64,000 bases of DNA from Verrucomicrobiaceae bacterium (GTDB taxonomy: Bacteria > Pseudomonadota > Gammaproteobacteria > Pseudomonadales > CAMLJR01): positions 17,531 to 81,530 of the forward strand of contig JAQGNY010000027.1 in the NCBI GenBank assembly GCA_028293825.1, in the 5' to 3' direction. The notes under the pieces are model-generated. The model made no database searches and was not told the origin of the DNA. It was given only the letters and a program-made list of their open reading frames with translations. Position 1 is the first letter of the stretch, and each line of letters begins with the position of its first letter. Position numbers and translations under genes: made by a program. This document shows positions 41,495 through 50,451 of this stretch, one piece after another.

Positions 41495-41894
41495 GCGCAA
41501 GCGCGATCTCGGCGCATTTTTTCACTCCATTCACGGCACGCTGAATCATTTACTGTTAACGGATTGCATCTGGCTGGGGCGGCTCAAGGCAGTTGAGTTT
41601 CCAGTACGTACTTTACGCGACGAGTTGCACACTGACTTTGCCGAACTGGCGCGCGAGCGTGAGAAAACGGACGGGGAATTCGACACGCTTTTATATACTT
41701 ATTTAGAAGCAGATTTGGATTGCGATCTGACTTATACCAGTATTGCCAATGGCATAACGCGTAGTTATCCGCCGCGCGATGTGCTGCTGCATATATGTAA
41801 TCACCAAACGCATCATCGCGGTCAGATCACCGCGTTGATTCAGCAACTGGGATTCGATTATGGCGATATCGATTTATTGTTTATGCCGCGCTAG
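41388..41894 (+). CDS. DinB-family (four-helix-bundle, metal-binding) protein
   Basis: 168-aa ORF with FYRYNTLANQHIY, HSIHGTLNHLL and ICNHQTHHRGQITALI, the DinB His triad. The start could be the ATG at 41400. Confidence 0.8.
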   Translation: MEKKMESINLLREFYRYNTLANQHIYAVCATVPDSERKRDLGAFFHSIHGTLNHLLLTDCIWLGRLKAVEFPVRTLRDELHTDFAELAREREKTDGEFDTLLYTYLEADLDCDLTYTSIANGITRSYPPRDVLLHICNHQTHHRGQITALIQQLGFDYGDIDLLFMPR

Positions 41895-42728
41895 TACGGA
41901 ACTGAGCAATTGCGACCAGAGTGCCACCCAACAACAGGTGTGATCCACGCCTTTCAAAATAATTAATGGCGCATTGAAGCGATCGGTGAAGGTTTTGGTT
42001 ATTGCAACGGGCACATTATTATCGTTGGCACCGGCGAAATGATGTTGAGTGAGATCGGCGCACGGCTTAAATACATCGACAGGATTTAGCGACAAGCTCA
42101 GCGGCGAAAAATTATGCAGTGCGGTCCATTGTTCGGTATCGAGATTCGCTGCAACAGTAATTAATGTCACTGGCTTTGGCAGCGCGCAAGCAATTAATGT
42201 TGCAATCGTGCCGCCACCGCTGTAACCGATTAATACAACGCGACGCGGATTTTTTTCGACGATGTAGCGGGTCGCTACGGTACGGATGTCATCGATTATT
42301 TGTTGCGAATAACGTGCGTTAGTCCAATCACTGGTCGCGCAATGCGGATCTGCTCCAATAGCGTAATGATTGAAATAACACGGACGCCCGAGATAAATAG
42401 CGGCGCTGCTATCCTGGTACATTAATTCAAGCGCGAGTGGATTGCTCGGCGTGGGATCGCGCGCCGGTTGATCGCCAATCCACGGTGAGCCATCCCCCTC
42501 GATATAAATGTGAAGTTCGTCGCGTTGCTCAGAGAGAGAAGGTCCAGTGACTATATGCTGGGCAACAAAATGTTCGATCACAAAATGTTTGAAGTAAGCA
42601 GATTGCTCAACAATTTTGTATTCGCGATTAGTGAAGGCCCGGTCGTACGGCGATTGCGCGCATCCCGTTATAAGTGCCATAAGCACATAGATCGGAAATG
42701 CCTTTTTTAAATTATTTTTGAAAGCCAT
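41874..42728 (-). CDS. Lipoprotein serine hydrolase (alpha/beta fold), family not recognised
   Basis: Preferred start at ATG 42728 (MAFKNNLKKAFPIYVLMALITGCAQ, a lipobox). It has the nucleophile elbow LIGYSGGG and a C-terminal Asp/His (GANDNNV, VDHTCCW). The ORF track extends to 42785. Confidence 0.7.
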   Translation of the reverse strand: MAFKNNLKKAFPIYVLMALITGCAQSPYDRAFTNREYKIVEQSAYFKHFVIEHFVAQHIVTGPSLSEQRDELHIYIEGDGSPWIGDQPARDPTPSNPLALELMYQDSSAAIYLGRPCYFNHYAIGADPHCATSDWTNARYSQQIIDDIRTVATRYIVEKNPRRVVLIGYSGGGTIATLIACALPKPVTLITVAANLDTEQWTALHNFSPLSLSLNPVDVFKPCADLTQHHFAGANDNNVPVAITKTFTDRFNAPLIILKGVDHTCCWVALWSQLLSSVLARHKQ

Positions 42729-42831
42729 TACCTGATTAAAGTCTATTGACCACTGCGTATAGCCAGCGGTATGGTTGCGGCCCACGGAAAGCTCAGTATT
42801 TATTTGAGCGGCTCATATAATATTTTCAGGG

Positions 42832-44649
42832 ATGTTGACGATGTTAATCCGCGCCTTTTCATTTCGAAAATTATTTCTATTTTTACCCGCCAGCGCTATT
42901 TATTTATGCGCACTCTCTGCGTGTCAAACACCGACCGATAGTCATAAAGCGACAAACTTAGCAAATAGCGCCGAGAATGCGAACAGGTCGCAGGATACTA
43001 TTAATTCACCGCGCGCTATCAATTCAAGCGGTCCTGCCGATTCCAAGAGTGCCGATTCAATAAATACAGACTCAAAAAATACTGCCTCAAAAGATAATAG
43101 TGCCCACACGCAGAATGCGCAGCGCATTTCCGAATTGCAGATAGTTGACTGTTTATTGCCCGGGCAAATGCGCATGTTGGGCAATTCGAGTTATTTAACG
43201 CCGCGGCGCCCCGTTCGTACCACGGCTGCCGATTGTAAAATTCGTGGCGGCGAATATATCGCCTACGACCGCGCCGACTATAAAACGGCATTAAACGTGT
43301 GGCTGGAAGCGGCACAAAGCGGCGATGCTGAAGCGCAAGTTAATGTCGGAGAAATTTTTGAGCGCGGTTTGGGCGGTCAGCCTAATTACGACGCGGCATT
43401 AATCTGGTATCAAAAAGCAGCGGAGCAGGGCAATCGTCGTGCGCAATTTAATCTCGGCACTTTTTATGAGCAGGGCTTCGGTGTTGAAAAAGACCCAGTC
43501 ATTGCACTTAATTGGTATCGCAAGGCATGGGGGCTGCCGGCCAATGAAATCGGCTTCAAATCTTATTGGGAAAAAACGGCGAGCGCTGAGCGCGAGCAAT
43601 TGCAGCAATCGGTACAAAATAAAGACCGGCAAATAAGCGTGTTGGAGCAGCAGGTTTCAGCGCTACGTAGAAAAATTCCTGAAGTGACGACTGGCTCGAC
43701 ACCGAAATCCGATCCGGCACTGACTGCACAAATCGATTCGCTGCAAGAGCTGGTTAAAGAGCTTTCCGCACAGCGACAAGTTACGTTTGCAAAAGCCGAA
43801 TCCATTCAATTGCGCCAACCGCTACGTACTGAAACGCAAAGTACATCCGATGCTGTCGCACAGCCGTTACGTGCCGGCAATTATCAATTCGGACGTTTTT
43901 ATGCGCTGGTCATCGGCGATGAGCAATACCAGAAAATCGAATCGCTGAAGACCCCACTTAACGATGCTGATGAAATCAGTGCGTTATTGCAAAACCGTTA
44001 TGGCTTTAAAGTCACGCAGCTGCGCAATGCCGACAATGTCACCATTATGGAAGCTATCAATAATCTCAATAATGTCTTAACCGAAGGGGATAATTTGCTG
44101 ATTTATTATGCAGGCCACGGCAGCCGCACGCAGTCGGGCACGGCGGAAACTGGTTTTTGGTTGCCGGTTAATGCAGACCCGCCACCCCGCGATACTTATT
44201 GGGTGAGCAATGATTTTGTCACCCGCCATATCGCGCATTTCAAAGCCAAACGAGTGCTCGTGGTGGCCGATTCGTGTTACGCGGGATTGTTATCTAGCGA
44301 GCCCGGGTTTTTATTATTGGGCGCGAATGGGGTGCCGTCGGCAGATTATATTCGTTACAAAATCGATCGGCGTGCGCGCTTGCTACTGGCCAGCGGCGGC
44401 GATTTTCCGGTGCTCGATAATGGCGGCGATACACACTCGGTATTTGCCGATGCATTCATCAGCGTATTGCGCGATAACACGCGTTTATTAACTGGGCCGG
44501 AACTGTATCGAGAAGTTAAAAGTCGCGTACAAAAATCGGCGAGCGCGCTGCAGTTCCAACAAGAGCCGGTTTATAAAGCGATTAAAGAAGCGGGGCACGA
44601 AGTCGGCGATTTCTTTTTTGTTCCAACTGCCGCGACTGCGATGCGGTAG
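42832..44649 (+). CDS. Lipoprotein with Sel1 repeats, a coiled coil and a C-terminal caspase-like (peptidase C14) domain
   Basis: 605-aa ORF. The lipobox is LCALSAC. A Ser/Asn/Asp/Lys-rich linker is followed by three Sel1-like repeats (AEAQVNVGEIFERGLGG, YQKAAEQGNRRAQFNLGTFYEQGFGV, WYRKA) and a heptad-rich segment. The caspase core has LLIYYAGHGS (His) and VLVVADSCYAG (Cys). Confidence 0.8.
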   Translation: MLTMLIRAFSFRKLFLFLPASAIYLCALSACQTPTDSHKATNLANSAENANRSQDTINSPRAINSSGPADSKSADSINTDSKNTASKDNSAHTQNAQRISELQIVDCLLPGQMRMLGNSSYLTPRRPVRTTAADCKIRGGEYIAYDRADYKTALNVWLEAAQSGDAEAQVNVGEIFERGLGGQPNYDAALIWYQKAAEQGNRRAQFNLGTFYEQGFGVEKDPVIALNWYRKAWGLPANEIGFKSYWEKTASAEREQLQQSVQNKDRQISVLEQQVSALRRKIPEVTTGSTPKSDPALTAQIDSLQELVKELSAQRQVTFAKAESIQLRQPLRTETQSTSDAVAQPLRAGNYQFGRFYALVIGDEQYQKIESLKTPLNDADEISALLQNRYGFKVTQLRNADNVTIMEAINNLNNVLTEGDNLLIYYAGHGSRTQSGTAETGFWLPVNADPPPRDTYWVSNDFVTRHIAHFKAKRVLVVADSCYAGLLSSEPGFLLLGANGVPSADYIRYKIDRRARLLLASGGDFPVLDNGGDTHSVFADAFISVLRDNTRLLTGPELYREVKSRVQKSASALQFQQEPVYKAIKEAGHEVGDFFFVPTAATAMR

Positions 44650-44753
44650 TTATTCACCATTAACTACACATCAATTAATACCCAGCACCTAAAAGCGAAG
44701 AATTGACTCGAGCTTTTTAAAATTTAAAAAATTACAGAGAGTGAGAAGGAGCG

Positions 44754-46268
44754 ATGGTCAGGAGCATGAAAAAACTCAATAAATATTTATGTAAAGCGCC
44801 AGTTCTCTTGCGCACGGCGCCGATTATGGCAGGCTATTTAATAATGACAGCATCGCCGGCGCATGCCGATCTGACCGCGCTGTTCGGCAAATTCGCAAAC
44901 GATATCGAAGAGCGTTCGGCTGTCGCCACCCAGGCGGTTTATGACCAACTCAAAACAGCAGGTTGTAGCGATCTGCAAGCGGGCCCCACACAAGCGTGTG
45001 CAGGCGGCACTTATTTGGTGTGGCGCAACGTGCGTGAAGTTGTGCACAACGCCAATGTGCTGACCGGTGCTACCGAAGAGCCCACTAATTTTTCGCTCGG
45101 TCGCCCCTCTGTAGCGCTGTTAGGGCGTGCGCTGCGCTGGTGTAATGGCGAAGAGTTCAGCTCGATGGGATCGCTGTCGAACAGTTTTGTTAATTCGCAG
45201 GTGGGCAGTTTAGCTGCGCGTATTACTGCGCTGCGCTTTGGCGCCAGCGGTTTTCGTCTCGCGGGTAGTTCGTTTGGCGATTCGCCGCAATTGGCACAAG
45301 TCGGTTCGCGCGGCGGTGCTGCAGGTGCCGATAGCTGGTCGCGGCTCGGCGGCTTTATCAATGTCAGCTACAACGATGGTGATAAAGATCTGACTTCGCG
45401 TGAAGATGCTTTTTCGTTCGATGGGCGCTCTATTAATGCCGGTTTCGATTTTCGTATTGATGCCAATTGGGTTGCCGGTGTCATGCTCGGTTATCAAAAC
45501 CAAGATTTGGATTTCGACACCACTGCGACGGTCGAAGCGAAATCGAAAATGCACGGCGTTTCGCTATTGCCATTTATTCTGTATCAATCCGATGCATGGT
45601 ACGCGAGCGCATCGCTCGGCTATCAGCGCATGAATTTCGATTTAAATCGTCACGTCAATTATGGCTCGGGCGCGCTCGCAGCTGTGGCCGTACAACACAA
45701 TACGGTCGATGACAGCGGCACCGACGCGAATAGTTTTACCTCGTATAACACGGTTGGTTATTCGTTCAGCCCGAGCGCGCCGTGGACTATCGAACCATCG
45801 CTATCGATCGATTATCAACATATTGCTATCGACGGATTTACCGAGCGCGATGTGCAGAATCAAGGCTTCAATTTCGCCGTCGATAAACAAATCGTGCAAT
45901 CGTTGGAGGCCATTCCTGCCGTGCGTGCGCAGTACGCATTTAAACCGAGCTACGGCGTTTGGGTTCCGTTTGTCGATGCGCAATGGCATACGCAATTTAA
46001 AAACGATTCGCGCAACATCAAAGCGTTGTATGCCGATGCCGGTGGATTATTAACTGACGCGGCTCAATTTGAGATCGCCACCGACGCGCTTGATAAACAT
46101 TACTGGGTTTATACAGTCGGGCTGTCGGCTGTTCTGCGTGGTGCCGCACCGCATGGCACCGAAGTCGCCGCTGGAGGACTGCAAGCGTTCGTGAATTACC
46201 GCTGGTATGAAGGCATGGAAAATTATTCGCAACAAGTTGTCTCTGCGGGATTGCGTTACGAGTTTTAA
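44754..46268 (+). CDS. Type Va autotransporter beta-barrel protein with a very short passenger
   Basis: 504-aa ORF preceded by the RBS GAAGGAG. The signal peptide ends in ...SPAHA. A passenger of roughly 130 aa carries 3 Cys, followed by the linker helix SQVGSLAARITALRFG. The rest shows alternating beta-strand patterns and ends in the OMP signature ...GLRYEF. Confidence 0.8.
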   Translation: MVRSMKKLNKYLCKAPVLLRTAPIMAGYLIMTASPAHADLTALFGKFANDIEERSAVATQAVYDQLKTAGCSDLQAGPTQACAGGTYLVWRNVREVVHNANVLTGATEEPTNFSLGRPSVALLGRALRWCNGEEFSSMGSLSNSFVNSQVGSLAARITALRFGASGFRLAGSSFGDSPQLAQVGSRGGAAGADSWSRLGGFINVSYNDGDKDLTSREDAFSFDGRSINAGFDFRIDANWVAGVMLGYQNQDLDFDTTATVEAKSKMHGVSLLPFILYQSDAWYASASLGYQRMNFDLNRHVNYGSGALAAVAVQHNTVDDSGTDANSFTSYNTVGYSFSPSAPWTIEPSLSIDYQHIAIDGFTERDVQNQGFNFAVDKQIVQSLEAIPAVRAQYAFKPSYGVWVPFVDAQWHTQFKNDSRNIKALYADAGGLLTDAAQFEIATDALDKHYWVYTVGLSAVLRGAAPHGTEVAAGGLQAFVNYRWYEGMENYSQQVVSAGLRYEF

Positions 46269-46368
46269 CTCGCGAGGTTTTATTAAGTCGTGCAGCATAA
46301 GTCAGTAACAGGAAATATATCGAAAATTTTTTCGGTATTGCAGCAAAAATAATCATTAAAACGACGTA

Positions 46369-46408
46369 GCAGCGGAGCCCGCAGATTTTGCTCCGCTGCT
46401 TCTTTAAT
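46369..46408 (+). terminator. Terminator or attenuator hairpin between the autotransporter gene and the 1325-aa gene
   Basis: GCAGCGGAGC-ccgcagatttt-GCTCCGCTGC (perfect 10-bp stem) followed by TTCTTTAAT. It lies 100 nt after the stop at 46268 and 15 nt before the RBS AAGGAGA of the next gene. Confidence 0.55.
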
Positions 46409-46422
46409 CCAAGGAGACGGTC

Positions 46423-49400
46423 ATGAAGCTGTCACAAAGTCGTACATTATTTTCTTCGCGTTTTTCTCCATTTAAAAAATTAATTGGCCTCGTCACGGTG
46501 GCAATCGTTCTGGCCTTAGCCGGTACCTTGGCATTCAGCGTTACGCTGCCGGTTAAAGTTAAAAAACAGCCCGATAACTATTCGGTGCGCGGTTATCTCG
46601 CTGCCGTAGTGGGCGGAACAGGGCTCGCGGAAAAGGCCGGCATTTATGCGCGCGGTGTCGCGCAGAAAAATATTTATTTACCCGGCGTCGATGTGTATTT
46701 ACTCGACCCCAAAACCGGAAAAAATAGTGACGCGGTTAAAACCGATCTCAGCGGCCGCTTCACGTTGTTTGCGCCTGCCACTGGCCAATATCAATTGTGC
46801 TGGAAATCGCGCGCCTACGATGCCGGTTGCACGCCGGCGTTTATCGACGCCAATGGTCAGGCGCAATTTCTCAGTACCGTTTATATATCGCTGCCGCGCA
46901 AGCAAGACATGGTGGCGATCATGGGCCATATCGAAGATGCCGATGGCGATTCGCTGCGCACGCTCGATCCTTATTTAAATATCAATGCGTTTGCCACTGT
47001 CGCGTTGCAGGATTTAAAAGGCAAAGCGCTGGTCGATGTGTACGTCAATAATTTTGGCGACTATCTGCTGCCGTATGTTCCGGCCAAGGGCAATGTGCAG
47101 GTGCTGGCACGAGTTGAAGGCGGCAAGGTTGCGCAGGAAATTCGCAGCGAAGCCGATCTCACGCAAACACCACTGCATCAATTAAATCTGAAAGTACAAA
47201 ATCATCATCCGCACCTCAATCCCTTAACCGTGACGGATATTTCGGGCAAGCGCGTACAGAATGCAACACCCGGCGATGAACTGAAGTTATCCGCCGTAGC
47301 GCGTGACGATGACGGCGATACCATTAAATTCAGTTGGTTTGTTGGCGAAGGTGACGGCACTCTGTTGCAGAACTCGGGTGACAGCGTAAGTTGGAAACTG
47401 CCAGCAACCGAAGGCCGCTACACAGTGACTGCGGTCGCATACGACGGCAAAGGCGGTTATGACAAAGCCGTGCTGTCAGTCTTGGCCGATAAAAACGGCG
47501 TACCGTTCACCGGTACCGTAGTGGAAAGCGGCGGTGCTCCGATTGCACTGGCGAATATCGAAATTGTCGGCAGTCCAATTATTCAAACCGATGCGAACGG
47601 CCGTTTCACCACGCGCGTGAAGGAATCCGATCGCTACGTATTTAACGTGCGCAAAGAAGGTTATGCGCTGAATTCGCAAATTTACGATCGCGGTATTAGC
47701 GGCGGTAAATGGACTTTGCGCCGTGCGCAGGTGGTATCGGTTGATCCTACGCAGCCGATTCGTATTTCGCACAAACGCGGGGAGCGCGATTGCCCCGGCC
47801 CGGATAGCTTGCGCGCAAGCCCCGGTGTTGCCGGCGAATCGATTTACACACCGCAATGGCAAGACGGTAAAGGTCATGTGATCGATGCGCCTGTGGAAAG
47901 TAATTCGGCACTGACGCGTGCAGATATTTCGCGCGTTAAAAAAATGCCGGTGGTGCTGACGCGCAATTTAAAAATACCGCGCTGTAATCCTGGGGTTTCT
48001 GTTGAATTACCGGCGAATGCCATTGAGGACGCCAAGGGAAATTTGGTGACTACGCCGATTGATATCGGCATTTCGTCGGTCGATTTATTATCGCCCGAGC
48101 AAATGCCCGGCGATGAATCGGTTATTCCCAGCGCCGGTGGTGGCGGTTACATCGAAAGTTTCGGCGCTGGTGCGCTCGATCTTCCCGCAGGTATGCATTT
48201 GAAAGCGGGAGCCTCGGCGAAAGTGATTATTCCGGTGGATCGCTCCCGACAAATTGGCGGCGCGGCTTTACCGCCTACGGTGCCGTTATTGTCATACGAC
48301 GAGAAAAAAGGTTTATGGATCGAAGAGGGCATACTTACGCTTGGCACGATCAACGGTGTACAGAGTTATGTAGGAACGGTTAAGCATTTTTCCGCGTTCA
48401 ATGCCGATAACGTAAAAAACGCGACGTCGTCCTGCGTGCGAATTTTTAGTCCGACCTTGCCGAGTAAGTATGATCTGGAAGTGGCGGCACCATTTGGCGG
48501 TACCGGCGCACCGAAAATATTGAAGAAAGAAATCGATCAGACCTCCAGCACCGAGAACGTTATTTACAATTTGCCGAACAACACCAACATCACGTTGACG
48601 CCAATGACGCAGGGCGCGAATCCGCAAGTGTTGGGTTTTTACATTGTTAATTCGGGTGCACCACAAAATCCGAATACATCGCCGAATGTACCGCCGGGAC
48701 CACCGTACACATCGTGCAATAATTTCGTTGTGCTGAAATTAGGGAGCGCGCCGGATTCACCATTTGGCGGCGAATTTTTACACGGACTTGGCTACATCGG
48801 CGCCGGCAATTTCGGCTTCGACGATTTAACCAACGCAGGGCCGACCGGCAATGCGTTGCGCGATGCATTGGTCACTGCTTCAAAAAATTATTACAGCAGC
48901 GTCGACCCAAATAATAACCGCGATACTTTTGCCAAATTTAAAAGCAGTCACGGCTTTAGCGCTAACCCGAATACACCGGCTGCCGGAGAAACCGTTGCGC
49001 AATTTGCCAACACGGGCGATCTGGGTTTCGGTCGCGATATGCATTGCAAGAAAAGTGGCGCGAACATCGCGTGCTATGTCACCAATTACGGTACTGGCTA
49101 TAACAATATTCATCCCGGCGCTGGCACTGATGATCACGACGATGCCAATGCGGCTGGTCAGCGCGCGACAGTGGGTCTGTCGAAAGAGGTCGCGACTGTG
49201 GCAATGGAGTACACCGCGATCGATAACGATCCGGTCGGTGATCGAACCGTTAAGTTCTATGTGTATAAAAAGGACTTTCCGAATGCAGGCGATTACAACC
49301 GTAGTATTTCCGCAAATCTCGACGGTCGCGGTGAACGTCCGGTACCGCAGCTGTGTATGATTTGTCACGGCGGTCAGGTGCCGCAACAGTCCGGTGGTGC

Positions 49401-50400
49401 GCCGATTTTTAGCGCGGCAAACGATGTGAAGTTGAACGCGCGTTTTTTGCCGTTCGATTATCGGCTGTATACGTTTCCATCCAATCCAGCACTGCCGAGC
49501 ACTGCGCAGGATGCAAGTTTCAAAACATTTAATCAGGTGATCGTCGATAACGTGCCGACCGGTGCGCCAACTAGCGATCCAATTCGCGAAGTGGTGCGCG
49601 CGTTATACAACGATGCAACGCATACCAATTCGCCAACGCAATTACTCGACTCACCGGTACCGAATTGGAAAACCGGAGCATCTGCTGCAGCGGCTGGTCA
49701 GCAAAATTTCTACGATAGGGTTTTTGCCAACGCTTGTCGCACCTGCCACATCGCGCAGCCGTTTGCGCAATTGCAATTCAATACGTCGCAGAAGTTTTTA
49801 CATGTGACGACATCGCAATTTGGTGTGTCGGCAAATAATTTTCTGATGCTCGGAACAGCGCAGTCGCGGGTCTGCGGCGATTACACAATGCCGCATGCAT
49901 TGCGCACGCACGATATTTTCTGGGGCGTATTTTCCGATATCAATCCAGCTATTGCCGCGATTTCCATGCCGACGGAATTTCAGGCGTTTGGCGATGGTCT
50001 GGGTGGAGCAGCGACGGCGGGTGCGTGGAAGCCGAATCTATGCACGTCCTTCCTGGCCAGTACGGTATCGGTGCCGAGCAATTTTTATCAGCACGATATT
50101 CAAACGATTTGGAACGGCAAATGTGTTGCGTGCCATATCTCCGGCGGAATCGGACCGTTTAGTTTGACCGAGGGCAATTCATACGCGAATTTGGTTCCGG
50201 GTCGCGTGGTGGCGGGCAACGATAATCCGGCGACGGCGGGCAATACGCTGTTGGCGCGCATCACGGCGGCAGCGCCCGGTGGCGGACGCATGCCGCCGAA
50301 TTGTTTCCGCGCGCCGGAACCGCCCAATGGCAATGTGCCGTGCTTGGTGCAAACCGACGTCGACAAAATTAAAGCGTGGATACGCAGCGGCGCGAATTAA
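46423..50400 (+). CDS. 1325-aa exported multidomain protein: N-terminal signal/anchor, CarboxypepD_reg-like and Ig/PKD-like modules, and a C-terminal region with three CxxCH motifs
   Basis: Preceded by a strong RBS. The N-terminal hydrophobic segment is LIGLVTVAIVLALAGTLAFS. Beta-sandwich-like modules include GVDVYLLDPKTGKNSDAVKTDLSGRFTLF, IEIVGSPIIQTDANGRFTTRV and DDDGDTIKFSWFVGEGDG...YTVTAVAYDGKGGYD. The CxxCH motifs are CMICH, CRTCH and CVACH; the last has context IWNGKCVACHISGG...GRMP, resembling Planctomycete-type cytochrome c (PSCyt1) domains. Confidence 0.8.
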   Translation: MKLSQSRTLFSSRFSPFKKLIGLVTVAIVLALAGTLAFSVTLPVKVKKQPDNYSVRGYLAAVVGGTGLAEKAGIYARGVAQKNIYLPGVDVYLLDPKTGKNSDAVKTDLSGRFTLFAPATGQYQLCWKSRAYDAGCTPAFIDANGQAQFLSTVYISLPRKQDMVAIMGHIEDADGDSLRTLDPYLNINAFATVALQDLKGKALVDVYVNNFGDYLLPYVPAKGNVQVLARVEGGKVAQEIRSEADLTQTPLHQLNLKVQNHHPHLNPLTVTDISGKRVQNATPGDELKLSAVARDDDGDTIKFSWFVGEGDGTLLQNSGDSVSWKLPATEGRYTVTAVAYDGKGGYDKAVLSVLADKNGVPFTGTVVESGGAPIALANIEIVGSPIIQTDANGRFTTRVKESDRYVFNVRKEGYALNSQIYDRGISGGKWTLRRAQVVSVDPTQPIRISHKRGERDCPGPDSLRASPGVAGESIYTPQWQDGKGHVIDAPVESNSALTRADISRVKKMPVVLTRNLKIPRCNPGVSVELPANAIEDAKGNLVTTPIDIGISSVDLLSPEQMPGDESVIPSAGGGGYIESFGAGALDLPAGMHLKAGASAKVIIPVDRSRQIGGAALPPTVPLLSYDEKKGLWIEEGILTLGTINGVQSYVGTVKHFSAFNADNVKNATSSCVRIFSPTLPSKYDLEVAAPFGGTGAPKILKKEIDQTSSTENVIYNLPNNTNITLTPMTQGANPQVLGFYIVNSGAPQNPNTSPNVPPGPPYTSCNNFVVLKLGSAPDSPFGGEFLHGLGYIGAGNFGFDDLTNAGPTGNALRDALVTASKNYYSSVDPNNNRDTFAKFKSSHGFSANPNTPAAGETVAQFANTGDLGFGRDMHCKKSGANIACYVTNYGTGYNNIHPGAGTDDHDDANAAGQRATVGLSKEVATVAMEYTAIDNDPVGDRTVKFYVYKKDFPNAGDYNRSISANLDGRGERPVPQLCMICHGGQVPQQSGGAPIFSAANDVKLNARFLPFDYRLYTFPSNPALPSTAQDASFKTFNQVIVDNVPTGAPTSDPIREVVRALYNDATHTNSPTQLLDSPVPNWKTGASAAAAGQQNFYDRVFANACRTCHIAQPFAQLQFNTSQKFLHVTTSQFGVSANNFLMLGTAQSRVCGDYTMPHALRTHDIFWGVFSDINPAIAAISMPTEFQAFGDGLGGAATAGAWKPNLCTSFLASTVSVPSNFYQHDIQTIWNGKCVACHISGGIGPFSLTEGNSYANLVPGRVVAGNDNPATAGNTLLARITAAAPGGGRMPPNCFRAPEPPNGNVPCLVQTDVDKIKAWIRSGAN

Positions 50401-50422
50401 AATGTGGAAGTGTTGTTTAGAG

Positions 50423-50451
50423 GCGGCGCATTCATGCGCCGCTTCTATTTT
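50423..50451 (+). terminator. Rho-independent terminator of the 1325-aa gene
   Basis: GCGGCGCA-ttca-TGCGCCGC followed by TTCTATTTT, 22 nt after the stop. Confidence 0.75.

Follow-up and report, generated by a model that had tools for sequence, protein, structure and literature searches.

A caspase-like lipoprotein, a type V barrel and a CxxCH-motif protein belong to a recurrent, apparently undescribed envelope gene module of Gammaproteobacteria

Four neighbouring genes for exported proteins, found in a 64,000-nucleotide stretch of contig JAQGNY010000027.1 (assembly GCA_028293825.1, positions 17,531 to 81,530; hereafter the window), raise the question of whether they form a functional set or merely adjoin one another. 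Three of them are read on the + strand: C (42832..44649), an outer-membrane lipoprotein that combines Sel1 repeats with a C14 orthocaspase domain; B (44754..46268), a type Va autotransporter barrel; and G (46423..50400), an exported protein of 1325 amino acids carrying CxxCH motifs. The fourth, H (41874..42728, - strand, 284 amino acids, with its ATG at 42728), is a lipoprotein and probable alpha/beta serine hydrolase divergent from C. A preliminary description of this DNA had listed the four open reading frames with their export signals and had read them as a caspase, an autotransporter barrel, a CxxCH protein and a hydrolase; all four reading frames and signals are present, and the domain calls are correct. 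It had also proposed that they work together at the periplasm or outer membrane. We report here that the four genes are one copy of a conserved five-part cell-envelope module, whose fifth member, a Hanks-type kinase that we call K, is absent from the window.

The evidence comes from a census of barrel loci. An alignment of 33 barrels was used to seed a metagenome scan, which returned 80 barrel loci in 72 groups at 95% nucleotide identity. Partners were detected by tblastn of the window proteins and of the partners from Dasania marina against all barrel loci; open reading frames in the census loci were called crudely, and some common ancestry among contigs of related samples may have escaped the 95% dereplication. 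In 34 of the 40 non-redundant loci with enough sequence (raw count, 39 of 44), the barrel gene is followed on its own strand by the gene of a CxxCH-module protein, which starts less than 1 kb away. Among 20 well-flanked loci, the CxxCH protein was found in 18, the caspase and the kinase in 15 each, the hydrolase in 10 and a PP2C protein in 3. More specifically, C and K occur together in 15 of 15 of these loci and are both missing from the other 5 of 5 (Fisher p 6e-5). De novo clustering of the open reading frames from 42 loci yielded five recurrent families only, namely G (36 loci), B (31), K (28), C (27) and H (21); the next family reached 7 of the 42, and outside these families the neighbourhoods vary. 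In canonical form the genes run K, H (in many cases on the opposite strand), C, B, G. K itself has a low-complexity N-terminus, a Hanks Ser/Thr kinase domain and, beyond a single transmembrane helix, a conserved periplasmic tail of about 100 residues, and neither K nor H, B or G is assigned to a specific family by NCBIfam. Since these families turn up together in dozens of unrelated contigs, their adjacency is more than chance, and the recurrence pattern, judged from gene order, reads as the signature of a functional module moving as a unit. The proposal of a periplasm- or outer-membrane-facing set was therefore supported by synteny, although it had missed the fifth member, K, and the full-length G subfamily proved to be solitary elsewhere. 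No description of a K-H-C-B-G gene set was found in a literature search, and the module is apparently a recurrent and undescribed five-gene module of Gammaproteobacteria.

Homologues of the caspase, the barrel and the CxxCH protein stand in the same order in Dasania marina, in Marinobacter sp. chi1 and in many metagenomic contigs. The order in D. marina is PP2C, FHA-FHA, K, the Sel1-caspase C, the barrel B (45% identical to that of the window), a G of 1747 amino acids and a 303-amino-acid homologue of H (E 5e-43), with multihaem cytochromes just upstream of the module. This 1747-residue G resembles the 1325-residue G of the window in the CxxCH core only (residues 814-1109 against 350-639, E 1e-21), together with the C-terminal CxxCH and tail. 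A Steroidobacter metagenome-assembled genome (MAG) has the barrel followed by a 1066-amino-acid homologue of G (26% identity over about 1150 residues), and a close relative repeats the window arrangement exactly, with a barrel 77% and a large protein 62% identical and with the same flanking genes. The barrel homologues come from gammaproteobacterial sources, and the named relatives of B and C are all Gammaproteobacteria (Steroidobacter, Dasania, Marinobacter, Zhongshania and Exilibacterium).

Two themes recur in the context of the module: Ser/Thr-phosphate signalling to FHA proteins and periplasmic c-type cytochromes. In Marinobacter sp. chi1 (census locus L094) the genes K-H-C-B-G-G' lie between Hcp-VgrG-DUF6931-PAAR and a ClpV-like gene, and in loci L052, L068 and L087 the genes TssL-TssM-TagF/PP2C are followed by K-(H)-C-B-G. 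A kinase, PP2C and FHA are found with core genes for type VI secretion (T6SS) in all four of these related loci. In L052 (L052:4122-5591), as in L068 and L087, the TagF N-terminal domain and PP2C are joined in one protein encoded between tssM and K, and the TagF part of this fusion passes the NCBI curated cut-off. An FHA-GGDEF protein adjoins B in L017. Locus L095 carries at 1-1407, on the - strand and near the K, H and C genes of L095:5769-11623, a gene for a protein that has an FHA domain at its N-terminus, a single transmembrane segment and, in its periplasmic part, at least 7 CxxCH motifs; it is predicted to be a phospho-threonine reader fused to a multihaem cytochrome, beside two Hanks kinases and a caspase-hydrolase pair. 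The cultured Rhodanobacteraceae isolate Frateuria defendens DHo (L008:13308-14183, - strand) shows yet another arrangement, in which a remote G homologue (28% identity, two CxxCH motifs) precedes a barrel homologue (E 1e-11) encoded on the opposite strand.

We examined B for what kind of barrel stands at the centre of these loci. Its match to the Pfam autotransporter beta-domain PF03797 covers residues 201-461 (E 2.1e-38, 133 bits against a cut-off of 26), and the AlphaFold2 model (pLDDT 81, pTM 0.77) is closest by Foldseek to EstA (3kvn, 1.3e-18), AaaA (4e-16) and NalP (4e-13). The protein consists of a signal peptide (about residues 1-38), a helical passenger (about 39-130), a linker helix (133-163), a disordered stretch (164-194) and the barrel (about 198-504), which ends in RYEF. 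In the alignment of 33 barrels, Cys71, Cys82 and Trp129 of the passenger and the adjoining Glu133 and Glu134 are invariant, and Cys130 is lineage-specific. The passenger, helical and of about 90 residues, matches no Pfam or NCBIfam domain, and no functional enzyme or adhesin was recognised in it. B belongs to the type Va barrel family, and its passenger is atypical and minimal.

G, which follows the barrel, starts with a hydrophobic signal/anchor without lipobox or Cys and contains a PKD domain (residues 282-345) and a CarboxypepD_reg domain (363-419) according to Pfam. Three c-type haem attachment motifs had been reported in it, and we found all three, at residues 978 (CMICH, 49354-49368), 1105 (CRTCH, 49735-49749) and 1234 (CVACH, 50122-50136). 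They lie in a core module (residues 790-1325; 48790..50397, + strand) composed of a beta domain and a helical domain, which AlphaFold2 models with confidence (pLDDT 81.4, pTM 0.80). In an alignment of 44 sequences motifs 1 and 2 retain their Cys and His without exception, and motif 3 retains its own either invariantly or at 90% or more; candidate distal ligands occur in DMHC (872), MPH (1156) and RMPP (1289), and the nearby Met is conserved. Based on the conserved CxxCH motifs, the nearby conserved Met and the placement of every CxxCH at the end of a helix in the model, G is a probable His/Met-ligated c-type haem protein. The core has no Pfam family and, by Foldseek against the PDB, no structural relative (best E 0.28, with coronavirus spike fragments at TM-scores below 0.1 as top matches); by sequence, G gave marginal PKD/Ig matches only to PDB chains. 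The core module is nonetheless widespread: among 1.84 billion cluster representatives searched with phmmer, 1,578 match it at E<=1e-3, of which 1,072 reach E<=1e-10.

The distribution of full-length G differs from that of its core. More than 120 full-length homologues at 35-66% identity come from sources including Acidobacteriota, Archangium gephyra, Chthoniobacterales and Massilia, and from end to end G shares 50-66% identity with proteins that carry the labels Acidobacteriota, Myxococcota (Archangium gephyra), Chthoniobacterales and Thermoanaerobaculia (P0002-P0074). Conservation this unusually high across phyla suggests either strong constraint or recent horizontal spread. In the other modules most G proteins are lipoproteins, rich in Ig-like domains, that combine Gly/Ser linkers with PKD, fn3 or CarboxypepD_reg arrays, and only the CxxCH core module, not the full-length G subfamily, is the conserved partner of the barrel. 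Several of these lipoproteins (L022:2185, L023:11574, L033:5735, L094:13268) share a motif, (S/G)DVG(N/D/Y)Q-x-D-x-x-P-x-A, just past the lipid Cys, which is absent from the 1325-residue G and could be a docking or processing site. The Marinobacter locus has two tandem G paralogues (L094:13268-21056), of about 1260 and 1273 amino acids, whose lipoprotein N-termini are identical.

C begins with the lipobox LSAC, in which Cys31 (codon 42922) is the lipid-attachment residue, followed by a low-complexity tether, a small N-terminal domain, Sel1 repeats (about residues 166-240; Pfam E 2.9e-20), a coiled coil (about 250-330), the C14 domain (357-583) and a C-terminal tail. The Peptidase_C14 match is well above threshold (E 1.3e-22, 81.1 bits against a gathering cut-off of 21.4), and the protein is 55% identical to its Dasania homologue. 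Across 22 homologues the dyad of His429 (YAGHG, codon 44116) and Cys482 (DSCY, codon 44275) is invariant, as are a Cys pair in the small N-terminal domain (Cys107, Cys135) and the tail AGHEVGDFFF. The NCBIfam model caspase_w_EACC1 gives 72.7 bits against a cut-off of 140, which indicates generic caspase homology only. Matches to the NCBIfam models MerG, AlgK and MotX fall far under their cut-offs and are cross-matches of the Sel1 repeats; an analogy with AlgK-AlgE exopolysaccharide secretion, raised by the weak AlgK match, was rejected, as no synthase or glycosyltransferase recurs in the neighbourhoods. Asp480 lies two residues N-terminal to Cys482, and an Asp at this position is a feature of the Arg/Lys-specific metacaspases. 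By analogy with these enzymes, C probably cleaves after a basic P1 residue (Arg or Lys) and, being a lipoprotein, would act in the periplasm. Among the domains that accompany bacterial metacaspases Sel1 ranks in the four commonest, and Sel1-metacaspase architectures have been catalogued (Asplund-Samuelsson et al. 2012, PMC3501461).

H combines the lipobox LITGC with the nucleophile motif GYSGG (Ser codon 42219-42221), followed by an Asp and a His. In 20 homologues the lipid Cys, G-x-S-G-G (Ser189), Asp255, His282 and the pair Cys136/Cys149 are kept at 95% or more, and matches of H to Pfam alpha/beta-hydrolase and NCBIfam models all stay under the curated cut-offs. That this divergent hydrolase belongs to the set had also been suggested, and indeed its homologues lie inside the module in 10 of the 20 well-flanked loci, as well as in Dasania (there downstream of the large protein), Marinobacter, Zhongshania and L095.

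What, then, could such a module do? The best reading, to which we give roughly an even chance, is that of an outer-membrane complex feeding a Hanks-kinase/FHA pathway. B and G would form this complex, with B as its membrane-embedded hub and G as a haem-binding, redox-active component with His/Met-type ligation. C, tethered to the outer membrane, would carry out regulated periplasmic proteolysis, probably after Arg or Lys, and H may be a second processing enzyme. In the canonical modules the proteolytic event would be relayed to K and then to FHA-domain outputs; some genomes may use type VI secretion as this output, others FHA-diguanylate cyclase or FHA-cytochrome proteins. In this way the module would be a functional counterpart of TagQRST or RtkS upstream of PpkA; for the window copy, the kinase arm may be encoded elsewhere, or the outer-membrane half may work alone. 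The roles that the preliminary description had ventured, with the barrel as an anchor, the caspase as a processing enzyme and the haem motifs as a redox input, are compatible with the data. In outline, the module would use a type V barrel as the basis of an envelope input to Hanks-kinase/FHA signalling. In its boldest form, which we put forward tentatively and hold to be distinctly less probable than the general reading, K-H-C-B-G would be a new trans-envelope signalling device, in which the barrel and the tri-haem protein sense a surface or redox cue, the caspase produces a proteolytic signal and the Hanks kinase acts through FHA proteins to control T6SS, cyclic di-GMP synthesis or respiratory cytochromes.

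Several observations weigh against this signalling model. The co-occurrence figures are conditional on the presence of B, because the barrel was the search seed. The 5 well-flanked loci of 20 that lack C and K have B and G without H as well, and Zhongshania aliphaticivorans has FHA-C-B-H-K and no G, so the parts of the module are separable. The G subfamily of the window is a solitary gene in Acidobacteriota and Myxococcota, with no adjacent caspase or barrel in four neighbourhoods (Archangium gephyra, two MAGs and the closest homologue, at 66%); a contig scan with G as query found only 4 loci, none closely related. T6SS genes adjoin the module in only about 4 of about 32 representative loci. 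As for the haem, the Cytochrome_CBB3 match of G scores 24.4 bits, under the cut-off of 27, and Foldseek finds no cytochrome fold. For the window copy the signalling arm cannot be demonstrated, since homologues of K, PP2C and FHA proteins, like those of the Dasania multihaem cytochromes, are absent from the 64 kb (tblastn at 1e-3); with no K homologue anywhere in it, the window copy is a kinase-less variant. Finally, each step of the model, from the interactions, the haem and the cue to the substrate and the relay to K, is proposed from gene context and sequence, that is, from the observed synteny, topology signals and conservation of catalytic residues and motifs.

The main rival of the signalling model is a split autotransporter, or surface display, in which B exports or anchors G as a passenger in trans. 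A haem protein with Ig-like stalk domains would thereby be exposed on the cell surface, where it would serve adhesion or redox chemistry outside the cell; C and H would act in maturation or shedding (by proteolytic release and removal of the lipid anchor), and K would only regulate. The surface-display reading accounts well for the B-G link, the tightest of the module (34 of 40 loci), which persists in the five loci devoid of C, K and H, and for the lipoprotein nature, Gly/Ser linkers and domain arrays of most G proteins, which are typical of surface proteins; the multihaem cytochromes just upstream of the Dasania module fit it as well. In L095 the position of B and G is filled by a 928-amino-acid classical autotransporter (L095:11646-14432, + strand) with a Calx-beta passenger and no CxxCH, and there is no separate G gene, a hint that G may stand in for the passenger. 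Yet a 12-strand type Va barrel, whose lumen is predicted to hold its own linker helix, offers no known route for a folded partner of 1,100-1,700 residues, and the 2-3 CxxCH motifs of G are far fewer than those of known outer-membrane electron conduits. Moreover, Zhongshania retains C-B-H-K in the absence of any G, and the perfect coupling of C to K, like the FHA, PP2C and TagF neighbours, favours signalling over maturation alone. We consider surface display clearly less probable than the signalling model, and the strongest of its rivals.

That the genes are a recently acquired genomic island is an improbable reading, for which base composition is one argument. The preliminary description had called the block accessory-looking and its 5' part more AT-rich than core genes such as the acnB-like gene. 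Gene G+C across the window averages 0.529 ± 0.027 (standard deviation); H (0.480) and C (0.496) are 1.2-1.8 standard deviations under this mean, and B (0.524) and G (0.526) are average, so that the claim is only weakly true. The composition argument is weak, and the acnB-like gene used as yardstick, at 0.596, is the G+C maximum of the window. An island would also agree with the differing genomic contexts of the module across organisms and with the similarity of G to proteins of other phyla, which are its closest matches. On the other hand, no integrase, tRNA or repeat boundary was noted, and the relative whose proteins are 73-79% identical carries the module in the corresponding position, again flanked by trmA-phhB-galE, which implies that the insertion predates the split from this relative.

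The flanks of the module in the window are as had been described, and Pfam agrees: a class IV aminotransferase and DinB on one side, Pterin_4a (phhB) and TrmA on the other. The H gene (-) converges with the DinB-family gene (+), and their 3' ends share 21 bases (41874-41894). The region between H and C (42729..42831) is the presumed promoter region of both genes from its geometry only, as the consensus promoter scan did not rise above shuffle expectation; promoter and terminator scans alike gave counts at or below this expectation and are uninformative on operon structure. In the window about 100-150 bp separate C from B and B from G, and the spacing in other loci is comparably tight. The NCBI label of the source MAG, Verrucomicrobiaceae bacterium (MDB6062078.1, MDB6062098.1, MDB6062101.1), stands against the gammaproteobacterial relatives of B and C; an incorrect label or mis-binning of the contig may be the reason.

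A caspase-based cell-suicide or anti-phage defence system is very improbable. Caspase-like proteases and Hanks kinases do occur in defence systems, and the generic caspase and kinase models of PADLOC match C and K; these matches are at the domain level only (generic caspase on C, 6.3e-9), and there is none for H, B or G. The location of the proteins speaks against defence, as B is a barrel of the outer membrane and the other three, C, H and G, leave the cytoplasm as lipoproteins or secreted proteins, which would place the protease in the periplasm, away from phage replication, and no nuclease, NTPase, gasdermin or toxin partner recurs in the 42-locus clustering. That four unrelated genes for exported proteins are chance neighbours with no common function is scarcely credible: the stand-alone G of Archangium gephyra, the two MAGs and the closest homologue would fit it, as would promoter and terminator scans that yield no operon evidence, but throughout the 72 non-redundant barrel loci, and in several named genera, these families recur with their order kept and short C-B-G gaps while the genomic surroundings vary, and barrel identities of 33-48% argue against a single copied mobile element as their source.

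The signalling model, if it holds, would bear on several known systems. The function of bacterial caspases is a long-standing open question, and here one of them is fixed in a compact, widespread and genetically tractable module, which could give bacterial caspase homologues a testable job, with kinase activity, phosphorylation of FHA proteins and T6SS firing in Marinobacter-like hosts as read-outs. Should the trans-envelope device prove true, it would provide the first physiological role and substrate pathway for a periplasmic bacterial caspase homologue and the first function for a domain family of 1,578 clusters that has neither a Pfam model nor a solved structure. The G core represents a sizeable putative haem-binding family, and the module would link envelope redox chemistry to Ser/Thr phospho-signalling. 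The window copy, as a natural kinase-less variant in which G seems to have been swapped in from another subfamily, may be useful for studying how the parts depend on one another.

Among the systems compared, the porin-cytochrome conduits of the MtrCAB type share with the module an outer-membrane barrel gene beside that of a lipoprotein with c-type haem motifs, and multihaem cytochromes adjoin the module in Dasania and L095. They are defined by a large porin with periplasmic and surface decahaem cytochromes, whereas B is a 12-strand autotransporter barrel and G has 2-3 CxxCH motifs (three in the window) against ten or more; the window contains no periplasmic MtrA-like partner, and MtrC homology is confined to a sub-threshold match of the neighbouring Dasania cytochrome. 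The type Va autotransporters EstA, AaaA and NalP are closer to B, which has in common with them PF03797, a linker helix predicted to span the pore, a Sec signal and an aromatic residue at the C-terminus. Unlike them, B has a passenger of about 90 helical residues with a conserved disulfide pair and no enzyme or adhesin domain, a 30-residue disordered stretch between the linker helix and strand 1 and, almost always, a separate giant protein encoded next to it, an unusual use of a type Va barrel whose passenger is almost empty. C resembles the orthocaspases and metacaspases (Peptidase C14B) in its His-Cys dyad, in the Asp two residues before the Cys and in its Sel1 partner domain, and differs from them as a periplasmic lipoprotein, coupled to a kinase in a fixed five-gene module, a context for which the literature search returned no precedent.

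The closest functional comparison is with the T6SS threonine phosphorylation pathway. In the TagQRST-PpkA-PppA-Fha1 system of the Pseudomonas aeruginosa H1-T6SS and in RtkS-PpkA of Serratia, as in the module, an outer-membrane lipoprotein and periplasmic partners stand upstream of a single-pass Hanks kinase, PP2C and FHA; three module loci directly follow tssL-tssM-tagF/PP2C, and the Marinobacter module lies among hcp, vgrG, PAAR and clpV-like genes. Most module loci have no T6SS genes nearby, and the window has no T6SS gene and none of the kinase, PP2C and FHA genes that define the pathway. The upstream activators of PpkA-type kinases differ from lineage to lineage, TagQRST and RtkS being the examples; a review from 2026 on accessory factors of T6SS treats them as lineage-specific and interchangeable, and its list contains none of the caspase, Sel1, autotransporter or cytochrome kind (PMC13584744). 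In that review TagQ is an outer-membrane lipoprotein, TagR a periplasmic COG1262 protein and TagS/TagT an ABC-transporter-like pair (COG4591, COG1136). By these descriptions H, C, B and G belong to other domain families (alpha/beta hydrolase, Sel1 with C14, PF03797 and PKD/CxxCH, respectively), and a protease, a barrel and a haem-motif protein figure in no described pathway of this kind. If the link to a PpkA-type kinase holds, the module would be a third, unrelated post-translational input to T6SS, beside TagQRST and RtkS.

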